Assembly: GCA_001029735.1 (NCBI GenBank)
Contig: CP011213.1
Location: 11,709 to 75,708 of the forward strand
Source: Berkelbacteria bacterium GW2011_GWE1_39_12
GTDB lineage: Bacteria; Patescibacteriota; UBA1384; UBA12157
Reading direction: 5' to 3'
DNA length: 64,000 nucleotides
Shown here: in pieces, positions 39,850-41,934 of the stretch
How positions within the stretch are numbered: position 1 is the stretch's first letter
How the letters are laid out: every line of letters starts with the position of its first letter
Program-made: the position numbers and the translations under genes
Notes under the pieces: generated by a model
Told to the model about the DNA's origin: nothing
Database searches by the model: none
What the model saw: the letters and a program-made list of their open reading frames with translations, nothing else

Positions 39850-39876
39850 TTATCTATTCTAACACAACCTTTATAC

Positions 39877-39905
39877 CTTGACATTTGACCTCTTTTATGG
39901 TATAT
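39877..39905 (+). promoter_or_regulatory. consensus sigma70 promoter TTGACA-N17-TATATT
   Basis: Hexamers at 39877-39882 and 39900-39905; about 95-nt leader before ATG 40003. Confidence 0.55.
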
Positions 39906-40002
39906 TATTTAAGTTCAGTCGTATGACTGGGCTCGTTCCACAGGGTGGAATAAGGGTGTAACTCCTCACCTTACAGGGAGTATCAGTTAAGGAGGTAAGT
40001 GT

Positions 40003-40311
40003 ATGCTTACCGAGAAAAAAAGATACGATATTTTCGCCGGTCAAGGAAGGTCAGATTTGATAACCTCATTCTTCGAGAAGGGTTGTCATTATCCTTTTCA
40101 ACTGCAGATTAAGACCGCAGACACGCAAAATACTAGCGCAAATCTTGAAGTGCGGCTGGAGTCGGTAATGTGGGAAGATAATTCCCGAGCCATCTGCATA
40201 CTCCAAGGCTATCTACAAGGTAGTCATCTCTATCCATTCAATGCGAATAGCAGGCATATCAAGGCCTGCTACAACACAGTTACGCGCAGAGGCTGGATAG
40301 AAACTATCTAA
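40003..40311 (+). CDS. hypothetical protein (102 aa) in a higher-GC cassette
   Basis: AAGGAGG SD; followed by terminator AAACCCC...GGGGTTT (40328-40355). Confidence 0.5.
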   Translation: MLTEKKRYDIFAGQGRSDLITSFFEKGCHYPFQLQIKTADTQNTSANLEVRLESVMWEDNSRAICILQGYLQGSHLYPFNANSRHIKACYNTVTRRGWIETI

Positions 40312-40366
40312 CATTGATCGCAATATCAAACCCCGAGCATTCGTGCCCGGGGTTTGTCATATCTAG

Positions 40367-40395
40367 TTGACTTTTTAATAAGTTTAGCGTACTAT
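40367..40395 (+). promoter_or_regulatory. sigma70-like promoter TTGACT-N17-TACTAT(AAT)
   Basis: Hexamers at 40367-40372 and 40390-40395. Confidence 0.5.
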
Positions 40396-40426
40396 AATTG
40401 GTCGAGTAGACAGAAAGAGGGAGACA

Positions 40427-40915
40427 ATGGAACCAGTGAAATTCCCAGATTGCATTCCAAAGGTTGGCGAGATTGTTCAAGTTGGCAACAGCCGGCGGAG
40501 CCTTGAAGCAAAAGTAAAGGCAAGATGGCCATCTGCTGATGGACGAACCTACTTCGTCCAATTGGACATCGACACACAGGTGATCCTGAGCATAACGCCC
40601 GATGCCGAAGAACGCGGTATGCTCGACAAGGCGAACAATCTTGTGCCATACTGGCGTGCCCATGAGGTATTCAGCGACACAAGGGTCGAACTGAGTCGAC
40701 CGGAGCACGAAGAAATATACAAGACTCCGAGAACGGTTCTGAGCACAAGAACTTCAAACTGTTTGATGAGGATGGCTGGTCTTTCGAATCTAGAGGAGAT
40801 CGCGAATTGCAGTGAGTCATATCTCCTACAGCTTCGAAATTTCGGTCCGAAGATGCTCGAAGAGGTCAAGGAAGTCTTAGCCAGCGCAGGTCTTTCATTG
40901 CGCAGCAACGACTAA
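40427..40915 (+). CDS. standalone protein with C-terminal RNA polymerase alpha-subunit C-terminal domain (alpha-CTD)-like helix-hairpin-helix; unknown N-terminal domain
   Basis: C-terminus LSTRTSNCLMRMAGLSNLEEIANCSESYLLQLRNFGPKMLEEVKEVLASAGLSL aligns with E. coli alpha-CTD [53 protein letters not shown], including the R265/N268/C269/G296/K298 equivalents. Confidence 0.6.
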   Translation: MEPVKFPDCIPKVGEIVQVGNSRRSLEAKVKARWPSADGRTYFVQLDIDTQVILSITPDAEERGMLDKANNLVPYWRAHEVFSDTRVELSRPEHEEIYKTPRTVLSTRTSNCLMRMAGLSNLEEIANCSESYLLQLRNFGPKMLEEVKEVLASAGLSLRSND

Positions 40916-40921
40916 CCAATA

Positions 40922-40951
40922 ACCCCGATACACATAGTTCGGGGTTTTTTA
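40922..40951 (+). terminator. strong intrinsic terminator
   Basis: AACCCCGAtacacatagTCGGGGTTtttt (8-bp perfect stem plus T6). Confidence 0.7.
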
Positions 40952-40961
40952 GTACTCACCC

Positions 40962-40989
40962 CTTGACAAATCTGAAAATTATGGTATAC
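40962..40989 (+). promoter_or_regulatory. consensus sigma70 promoter TTGACA-N16-TATACT driving an ORF-less transcript
   Basis: Hexamers at 40962-40967 and 40984-40989. Confidence 0.5.
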
Positions 40990-40995
40990 TTGGGA

Positions 40996-41212
40996 GGCCT
41001 TAAAAATTGAATATCTCTCCAGGTTGTAACTGGTTGGAAGTTGATTGAAACCGAACTCTTAAATTTTGGTCAACTTCTTTCCTATTACACTTAGCCCCGG
41101 CTTTGCACTTTAAAATTAAATTGAAGCCGGTCAAAACCTTCGGGTTGGCTCAAGCTCGTAAAGGAGAGGAAAAAAAAGTTGGACCTGCTCGCAAGAGTGG
41201 GTCCTTCTTTTT
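40996..41212 (+). ncRNA. candidate structured small RNA (about 215 nt), family unknown
   Basis: No ATG in the whole unit; hairpins including C(UUCG)G at AACCttcgGGTT, CCGGCTT...AAGCCGG, GAAGTTGA...TCAACTTC; ends in GNRA-capped hairpin GGACCTGCTCgcaaGAGTGGGTCC plus U-run. Confidence 0.35.
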
Positions 41213-41934
41213 TATCGCTTAAAATCTTGATAGAGCTCGCTAAAAATATCGTCGGCTAAAGAAACATAGAATTCATCGAGATCTTTTTTACTAGGCTTAT
41301 TTTTATTGAACGTTACGAAATCGGCATCTTCAATGATAGCCAATGGAGTCTGTTCCGATCCTTCACCCATCGCTAAGACAGCTGTAACGGCTAAGCCGTC
41401 AACTATATTTACTCTTTCAAACTGTAACTTCCGACCAAAAATATCTTCTTTCCCAATATAACTTTTGAGCGGTGAAAACCCGTAAAAGCCGATAGCGACA
41501 CCGAGAACACCACATCTGAGCGGCAATGATCTGCTATCGGTAATAATGACTCCGAAATCTGTTTTATTGTATTTTTTTGATAAGTACTCATAAATTTTCT
41601 TCGCTGTGTTTTGCGGATTTTTCGGCAATAAGATATAATCACCGTTCCCATTGGATTCGTCAATTCCAGCCCCGGAAATAAATGCGTTATGTTTTATGGT
41701 AAGGAGACGATTGTTACAATTTCTTTTGGCGGAGATATGGTCCGCTTCATCTTTTATTAAGAATTCTTTGTCGAGTTCTTTTGAAGCGATACGGTTTTCC
41801 ATTAAGGAAATTATTTTTGAGGTGATAACGATGATGGAATTATCTTTAATTGTTTTTATATATTCATTAAGAAATTGATCAGTTGATAGTTGATTTGCAA
41901 GAATCTTTTTAGTTTTTATAACTTTAATTTTCAT
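41212..41934 (-). CDS. CofE-family (F420-0:gamma-glutamyl ligase-like) protein
   Basis: SGAGIDESN and VIITDS...RCGVLGVAIG...GKEDIFGRKL...LAMGEGSEQTPLAIIED match CofE signatures. Confidence 0.6.
   Translation of the reverse strand: MKIKVIKTKKILANQLSTDQFLNEYIKTIKDNSIIVITSKIISLMENRIASKELDKEFLIKDEADHISAKRNCNNRLLTIKHNAFISGAGIDESNGNGDYILLPKNPQNTAKKIYEYLSKKYNKTDFGVIITDSRSLPLRCGVLGVAIGFYGFSPLKSYIGKEDIFGRKLQFERVNIVDGLAVTAVLAMGEGSEQTPLAIIEDADFVTFNKNKPSKKDLDEFYVSLADDIFSELYQDFKR

Follow-up and report, generated by a model that had tools for sequence, protein, structure and literature searches.

The window analysed here, a 64-kb stretch (positions 1-64000) of the genome of Berkelbacteria bacterium GW2011_GWE1_39_12, carries on its plus strand a short promoter-to-terminator unit that is, we are nearly certain, the gene of a real, conserved and structured non-coding RNA (ncRNA); coordinates below are window positions unless another locus is named. 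Just as an earlier note on this DNA had described, the unit opens with a TTGACA-N16-TATACT promoter (TTGACA at 40963-40968, a 16-nt spacer and TATACT at 40985-40990). There is in addition a TG one base 5′ of the −10 element, making this a near-consensus sigma-70-type promoter with an extended −10 (TGgTATACT; 40963..40990, plus strand) and 11 of 12 matches. Transcription would start near 40997, about 7 nt past the −10, and end near 41212, giving a predicted transcript of about 215 nt. The 222 nt of the plus strand behind the promoter (40991-41212) contain no ATG, again as had been noted, and the same is seen in only 1.3% of composition-matched shuffles. The minimum free energy of the plus-strand fold is −74.7 kcal/mol (z = −4.9), and the minus strand folds more weakly (z = −2.6).

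At the 3′ end of the unit, an A-rich linker (41170-41180) leads into a 10-bp hairpin with a GCAA cap, GGACCUGCUC-GCAA-GAGUGGGUCC (41181-41204), followed by a T-run that is transcribed as a U-run (whole terminator 41170..41213, plus strand). The stop codon (41212-41214) of a convergent open reading frame (ORF) on the minus strand (41212-41934) falls within this T-run, and the ORF matches PF01996 (F420-0:gamma-glutamyl ligase, CofE family; E = 8e-35), so the GNRA-capped terminator adjoining a CofE-like gene is indeed there. Because the A-run at 41170-41178 mirrors the T-run, the terminator is probably bidirectional and probably also serves the convergent operon. Its sequence is unusually constrained among the homologues described below (GGNCCUG...GCAA...YGGGNCC, with a kept U.G pair and, in most, the GCAA loop), which might reflect either service to both converging units or a part in the functional RNA.

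Twenty-two distinct homologues of the RNA were collected in Berkelbacteria metagenome contigs, 21 of them matches to a covariance model and one, the diverged L044, recognised by eye. The 21 that are further to the window came from CofE synteny, from a pattern scan of metagenomes and from DprA synteny independent of that pattern. Contigs with an identical CofE carry an identical RNA region and thus represent the same strain. In relatives whose CofE-like protein is 69% identical to that of the window, the RNA region is 86% identical over 244 nt, and weaker homologues occur where CofE is 59-63% identical. No copy was found in the non-syntenic loci of distant CofE relatives (43-58% identical; L001, L002 and L018-L020), and the syntenic L021 is uninformative on the presence of the RNA, its contig ending 57 nt past cofE. 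The pattern used for the JGI metagenome scan, CCCC-N6-GYACWUUAA...AAAGGRGAGG, was built from the CofE-synteny sequences and hit 22 loci, 21 of which are real; the other, L025, turned out to be a genuine ribosome-binding site preceding a gene, and the covariance model rejected it. The same pattern matched 11 sequences in IMG/VR, all of them chance matches by the covariance model, and phage-borne copies were therefore dismissed.

Because the pattern fixes nucleotides, we also sampled four DprA homologues (54-62% identical) without it. Three of these four loci carry the RNA by the covariance model, at 53-68 bits, and the fourth and most distant, L044 (DprA 54% identical), has a diverged RNA, seen by eye, that is without hairpin P4 and has the loop ACAAUAAAAAUUA. 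Nine synteny-anchored members confirm the pattern-fixed positions, with small variations. Across the covariance-model members whose dprA was compared, DprA is 56-69% identical. The L11 proteins of the family are 75-95% identical to the L11 of the window, and at two loci they are identical to those of Berkelbacteria GW2011_GWB1_38_5 and GWA1_36_9. The window's own CofE-like and DprA proteins are identical to proteins listed at NCBI under Candidatus Berkelbacteria. The RNA is present in a single copy per locus, with no paralogue in the 64-kb window, and the gene appears, as far as sampled, to be specific to Candidatus Berkelbacteria.

L044 deserves a separate remark. Its reduced RNA (L044 3751-4010, minus strand), missed by the covariance model, has the 3′ tract GUAUAGAGGGG, and its long 5′ hairpin has a loop, CCCCUCCUUA, that equals the 3′ end of 16S rRNA (the anti-Shine-Dalgarno sequence) and is complementary to that 3′ tract.

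The earlier note had called the unit a promoter-to-terminator one, and the homologues bear this out: wherever flanking sequence is present, the 21 further members have a promoter and a terminator of their own. All 20 covariance-model members with upstream sequence show a promoter-like site scoring at least 9.5/12, with the TG in 19 of 20 and most reading TTGACA-17-TATAAT, and the L044 form has a TATAAT upstream. These promoters lie 7-129 nt upstream of the core, and in L023 and L039 the −10 ends 7-9 nt before helix P1, so that the transcript would start at the core itself. A terminator of hairpin plus T-run, mostly GCAA-capped, is found in every member with downstream sequence; predicted transcript lengths range from about 146 to 254 nt.

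The conserved core of about 95 nt (41077-41169) consists of a closing helix P1 with a short extension, a second helix P2 and then a three-way junction from which hairpins P3 and P4 branch off; RNAalifold gave this same plan both from three sequences and then from eighteen. In the window, the 5′ strand of P1 and its extension, a segment that we call S2 (41077..41088, plus strand), comprises CUUUCCU (41077-41083), the bulged A41084 and UUAC (41085-41088), and the 3′ strand, S3 (41158..41169, plus strand), comprises GUAA (41158-41161) and AGGAGAGG (41162-41169). CUUUCCU pairs with AGG-A-GAGG and, past the bulged nucleotide, UUAC pairs with GUAA to form the 4-bp extension. P2 has 7 bp, formed by CUUAGCC (41090..41096, plus strand) and GGCU(C)AAG with one bulged C (41147..41154, plus strand), and 4-6 of its pairs show compensatory changes. 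P3 (CCGGCUUU / GAAGCCGG; 41097..41130, plus strand) has 8 bp, includes the CCGGCUU/AAGCCGG stem that had already been pointed out, and carries a loop, L3, of 18-19 nt (18 nt in the window, 41105-41122). Next come the junction segment J3/4 (UCAA) and P4 (together 41131..41146, plus strand), the latter being the AACC-UUCG-GGUU tetraloop hairpin, likewise seen before, at 41135-41146. Among the members P4 ranges from 3 to 11 bp, is capped by UUCG, GCAA or GAAA, and has 7 pairs with compensatory changes; it is absent in L044.

Upstream of the core lies a variable 5′ domain (40997..41076, plus strand), which in the window is made up of a leader (CUUAAAAAUUGAAUAU), a hairpin CCAG-GUUGUAA-CUGG (41019-41033) and a hairpin P0 (41036-41050 with 41064-41078, plus strand) whose loop contains AACUCUU. 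The GAAGUUGA/UCAACUUC hairpin that the earlier note had listed beside the two stems above is present at 41037-41077, but it belongs to this variable domain rather than to the core and is absent from two members. The window-type 5′ domain is kept only in the window-type subgroup; the 5′ domains of other members are unrelated to it, and L023 and L039 have none. The minimum-energy fold of the window also contains a closing stem, CUCUCC (41015-41020) with GGAGAG, which we rejected as it is not conserved, L009 having CUUUAC instead.

Covariation analysis, which the earlier note had recommended, gives this core strong support. In a curated alignment, made by hand with N as a gap filler to keep MAFFT from disturbing it, standard pairs fill 96.7% of the 574 pair cells, and in 14 pairs both partners have changed; the paired fraction, the number of compensatory pairs and the covariation score are each higher than in any of 500 shuffles, and sliding the partners by 1-3 columns as a control lowers pairing to 38-58%. 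Re-alignment of 21 sequences with the covariance model yields 96.5% paired cells and 17 compensatory pairs. P1 cells are 100% paired in alignment A5, and P1 plus extension 99.1% in A6. Six divergent members fold alone into the same architecture, and the three pattern-independent members add compensatory changes at sites that the pattern had fixed, such as a junction CC/GG that becomes AU/UA in L045. The compensatory changes sit in P2, P3 and P4; within P1, the UUAC/GUAA extension shows no covariation.

The alignments also identify the RNA strand: they contain 74 G.U cells, and the opposite strand would pair in only 84.8% of cells, so the plus strand is the one that acts as RNA. An RNA transcribed from the opposite strand was rejected on this G.U asymmetry and on the weaker minus-strand fold. 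There is likewise little left of a reading in which no RNA function exists and the conservation stems from the opposite strand (a 3′ untranslated region and terminator of the convergent operon), from a small protein gene or from chance. In its favour, the terminator is common to the convergent operon, and there is a plus-strand frame of 39 codons (41103-41222), the longest on that strand, which starts with TTG as the earlier note had stated. This frame has no Pfam match and is not conserved, the closest relative, L009, having at most 9 codons; the longest ORFs in the members differ in frame and length (9-71 aa), and none is conserved. A small protein was rejected on these grounds, and with no ATG and no conserved ORF among the members, the unit is non-coding, as had been thought. 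Together with the plus-strand placement of all members' promoters, the compensatory changes in P2, P3 and P4 and the excess of paired cells on the plus strand weigh against the absence of an RNA function, and covariation and strand asymmetry have already refuted it.

The RNA resembles no catalogued family, which agrees with the earlier assignment to an unknown one. None of the 4227 models of Rfam 15 matches, whether at gathering score over the window or at permissive E-values over the region and six homologous loci, where the permissive search returned only chance (miRNA, snoRNA) and terminator-type matches. Signal recognition particle RNA, transfer-messenger RNA (tmRNA), RNase P RNA and 5S rRNA were discarded in the absence of any covariance-model match, and ARAGORN found no tRNA or tmRNA in the window. 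A sponge of the CsrB/RsmZ type was also discarded, as there is one purine tract rather than many GGA loops, L044 has no GGA, and the Rfam scores lie far below gathering; the sub-threshold matches were CsrC at E = 0.07, confined to the terminator end, and RsmY at E = 2.6, which overlaps the core and is not significant. Mimicry of rRNA had come to mind on noticing CUUGUACA (16S, around position 1390), UAGAUACCC (the 790 loop) and GAGAGGA (the sarcin-ricin loop), and was dropped because sharing of 8-mers with the E. coli 16S, 23S and 5S rRNAs is at the shuffled level (about 4-13 observed against a shuffled mean of 5.9). A 5′ leader fared no better, the next gene being usually convergent at loci with enough flanking sequence and the same-strand ORFs of L014 and L026 lying behind the terminator. 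A full-text literature search returned no description of such an RNA in Berkelbacteria. Among the papers listed, a single one names Berkelbacteria together with noncoding RNA, and its subject is diverged RNase P RNAs in genomes of the candidate phyla radiation (CPR; PMC8172020).

The earlier suggestion that the transcript might be 6S-like did not hold up. Known 6S RNAs are hard to detect by sequence, and a functional analogue that binds the RNA polymerase holoenzyme could be argued from the similar size (about 215 nt), the strong promoter of its own and the single-copy conserved gene. Nevertheless, the molecule is a branched three-way junction with a 3′ terminator hairpin; it has no rod, no 5′-3′ closing stem and no central bubble, its conserved part is a 95-nt junction, its members vary from about 146 to 254 nt, and its 5′ domain is dispensable. 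The 6S models of Rfam gave no match either, whether the window was searched at gathering score, the region at E < 10 or six homologous loci at E < 5. Judged on these predicted features, a 6S analogue seems very improbable.

Two parts of the core stand out as candidate contact sites. The first is L3, whose 5′ ten nucleotides read GUACAUUAAA in every covariance-model member that does not belong to the window clade, with variation in the remainder of the loop; the block is GCACUUUAAA in the window clade and ACAAUAAAAA in L044. The GUACAUUAA portion of the block was fixed by the search pattern, and the three pattern-independent members share the whole block. We also considered a kissing dimer through L3, and left it as unsupported: UGUACA is palindromic and the UGCACU of the window clade is not.

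The invariance of L3 would suit a base-pairing small RNA in which the 10-nt block (or a freed S3) serves as the seed for one or a few mRNAs, the junction presents the seed, and the terminator and U-tail give stability or bind a chaperone. The unit has the matching anatomy, running from promoter to terminator with a U-tail and an A-rich linker, and L3 is single-stranded and nearly invariant over 10 nt in a loop that otherwise varies; moreover, two loop positions differ jointly in the window clade (GCACUUUAAA for GUACAUUAAA), a change to be expected had a single target co-evolved. Set against this, complements of L3 in the window, with up to 3 mismatches, number 6 where 10.8 are expected, the only exact one being the gene itself, and no complementary site recurs in 114 kb of the relatives' loci. 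As the search covered about 7% of the genome, its failure to find a target counts for little. A covarying scaffold of several helices, preserved over DprA identities of 56-80% and, in reduced form, in L044 at 54%, also goes beyond what seed presentation usually needs. On balance we find a seed-based mode of action possible, if rather doubtful.

The second candidate site is S3. In every member, the 3′ side of P1 is a Shine-Dalgarno-like run of purines (AAAGGAGAGG, AAAGGGGAGG, AAAGGAGGA, UGGAGGA or, in L044, UAGAGGGG). S3 resembles the ribosome-binding sites of the organism itself: just ahead of start codons in the window, AAAGG, AAGGA and AGGAG rank with the most frequent pentamers. No start codon or conserved ORF follows the tract in the members compared. 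A motif in the P0 loop, RNACUCU(U) (41052-41058 in the window), recurs in the 5′ domains of the window type and of the L017/L028 type and, being complementary to the GGAGAG of the purine tract, offers a third possible partner for S3.

S2, the pyrimidine strand of P1, itself has a rival partner. This is S1, a purine-rich "anti-P1" segment (GUAA..GG..GG; 41026..41037, plus strand) that is transcribed before S3, so that two similar purine strands face one pyrimidine strand. Since S2 can pair with either, the RNA can exist with S3 sequestered or exposed. When the full-length members are folded to minimum energy, only about half of them form P1; in the rest, S2 (41077-41088) pairs with S1, and these two strands flank P0. 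As an approximation to the nascent RNA, we folded only the part from the predicted start to S2: here S2 pairs with S1 in 17 of the 18 members with a 5′ domain, and the eighteenth, L046, also contains GUAAUAGUAAGAAA. In these folds 9.0 of the 12 nucleotides of S2 are paired, versus 4.0 when the upstream part is shuffled. The 5′ domains are of at least eight unrelated sequence types, all with a GUAAnAGGAAAG-like S1 segment. The S1:S2 pairing covaries as well, in that the P1-bulge nucleotide is paired as A-U, C-G, G-C or G.U and L014 and L045 have A-U instead of U-A at the first position of the P1 extension. L023 and L039 are without S1, and there only P1 can form.

A three-segment alternative of this kind, around an aptamer-like junction closed by P1, recalls a cis-acting sensor of the riboswitch or attenuator type, in which binding at the junction would shift S1:S2 versus S2:S3 and so control read-through of the terminator into antisense over cofE-sua5-rplK-nusG. 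The setting would allow it, as only one hairpin separates a strong promoter from the 3′ end of the essential operon towards which it points. The competition does exist, but it involves no part of the terminator and no ORF. Against such a sensor speaks the terminator hairpin, which is GC-rich and self-contained and has no strand that overlaps S1, S2 or S3, for which reason an anti-terminator was rejected. In L023, L040 and L047, an extra hairpin or 26-33 nt stands between S3 and the terminator, making direct competition unlikely. J3/4 differs by subgroup (UAAAA-like versus YWAGAU) and P4 is dispensable, missing as it is in L044, which is unlike a ligand pocket and argues against one in the junction; and no gene follows on the same strand. 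We consider a cis sensor decidedly unlikely.

Our preferred reading, to which we give a probability of about one half, is that of a trans-acting, partner-binding, switchable RNA. On this view the folded RNA would work in trans and be recognised by a partner, for which a protein or the translation apparatus is the likeliest candidate. L3 and the P1/S3 region would be the recognition surfaces, and the competition among S1, S2 and S3 would set the availability of S3; the RNA would neither regulate a downstream gene nor encode a protein. A narrower version holds that this is a hitherto unrecognised housekeeping-type ribonucleoprotein or translation-associated RNA of the CPR that switchably shows and hides a perfect ribosome-binding-site mimic (AAAGGAG...) opposite an anti-Shine-Dalgarno-like strand and thereby engages 30S subunits or a factor of translation or RNA processing, L3 being a second contact; stated so specifically, it is an unlikely conjecture.

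Several points weigh against the trans-acting, switchable reading. The invariant loop could equally well be a base-pairing seed. Start site, 3′ end and abundance are all deduced from sequence. In the members that prefer S1:S2, the consensus fold lies 0.5-13 kcal/mol above the minimum-energy fold, and either conformer may be the working one. P1 varies almost only by one-sided changes from U.G to C-G. The curated alignment was hand-fitted to the structure, and both alignments lean towards it. Finally, 18 of the sequences came from a pattern that fixes CCCC, GYACWUUAA and AAAGGRGAGG, so conservation at these positions is partly ascertainment.

The surroundings of the gene are largely constant. 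One strand carries ileS-ftsW-rplU-secE-nusG-rplK-sua5-cofE, a variable stretch and then dprA-topA-recR-cysS, and this order is kept in the relatives. The RNA gene lies within the variable stretch on the opposite strand, where it heads away from dprA and towards the 3′ end of the nusG-rplK operon. Where the flanks suffice, the usual setting is a divergent dprA upstream (where present) and a convergent gene past the terminator; in L014 and L026 a same-strand ORF follows, but behind the terminator. A linked protein was looked for among the small ORFs between dprA and the RNA and rejected, these ORFs being non-homologous among loci except for L039/L043.

The stretch from cofE/rplK to dprA is a hotspot of variable content (window 39850-40960; L009 3720-4500; L014 3720-6690; L017 3730-4720). 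In the window it holds a 102-aa ORF and an alpha-CTD protein, and elsewhere a 100-aa ORF, an NlpC/P60 protein, an ion-channel protein and others. It recalls the islands found beside tRNA and tmRNA genes; an integrase was not seen in it. The alpha-CTD protein is encoded by a 162-aa ORF (40427-40915, plus strand) directly upstream of the RNA, with its own terminator at 40920-40950; its only recognisable part is a C-terminal RNA polymerase alpha-CTD (PF03118, E = 2e-10). Its local GC content is 0.47-0.50, versus about 0.38-0.41 in flanking genes, and the 69%-identity relatives L009-L011 do not have it, which gives it the look of acquired cargo. A second near-consensus promoter with an extended −10 (39878-39906, plus strand; TTGACA, a 17-nt spacer, TATATT and a TG) precedes the 102-aa ORF by about 95 nt and stands back to back with the region where dprA starts. 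In L004 (5665-7196; ANAN16-1 scaffold_2528, same strain), topA appears as a 161-aa ORF plus a 563-aa product, versus a 717-aa TopA elsewhere, which may be an assembly or frameshift difference. Over the whole window (1-64000), ARAGORN reports no tRNA gene, and no Rfam family reaches gathering score.

CPR bacteria are uncultivated, with genomes of around 1 Mb, and to our knowledge their regulatory and structural RNAs are almost unexplored. A small RNA that is kept in a largely conserved neighbourhood across a phylum-level lineage, behind a near-consensus promoter, likely does something basic. With 22 distinct sequences, a covariance model, a map of its helices and a candidate switch, the family now has a definition that allows follow-up. 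A three-segment competition around a Shine-Dalgarno-like strand that has no ORF is unusual and could reveal a new use of a Shine-Dalgarno mimic. The RNA is of interest for CPR biology.

Compared with known systems, the RNA shares features with several. Its P1-closed three-way junction, its variable peripheral hairpin with stable tetraloops, the likeness of the P1 3′ strand to a Shine-Dalgarno sequence and the competition of S1:S2 with S2:S3 recall riboswitch aptamers and attenuation leaders. It differs from riboswitches in having no ORF or start codon behind it, a next gene that is usually convergent, a competitor upstream of the junction, a separate and apparently constitutive terminator, and junction nucleotides that are not kept across subgroups. 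With small RNAs of the Hfq/ProQ type it has in common the promoter-to-terminator unit, a conserved single-stranded block, an A-rich stretch and a 3′ U-tail; unlike them, it has an elaborate conserved scaffold of tertiary type, and no target was found in the 64-kb window or in 114 kb of loci. It is like 6S RNA (ssrS) in its length, its stand-alone, conserved, single-copy gene and its strong promoter, but it is branched rather than rod-shaped, has no central bubble and no model match, and its 5′ domain is dispensable. Its purine tract, with two overlapping A(N)GGA motifs, recalls the CsrB/RsmY sponges, which differ in that the present RNA has only one such tract and a variant, L044, without GGA. 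It is much smaller than OLE, GOLLD and ROOL.

The closest likeness is to the orphan structured ncRNAs, such as the raiA motif RNA and other Rfam motifs: these too are lineage-restricted and single-copy, with a complex covarying fold, invariant loop and junction nucleotides, transcription signals of their own and no obvious cis target. From these the Berkelbacteria RNA differs in its CPR lineage, in matching nothing in Rfam 15 and in having an upstream competitor strand for the closing helix. As judged by its predicted structure and distribution, it represents a new family within a familiar class of RNAs, the structured small RNAs specific to one lineage, and its unusual traits are that upstream competitor and a ribosome-binding-site mimic without an ORF.

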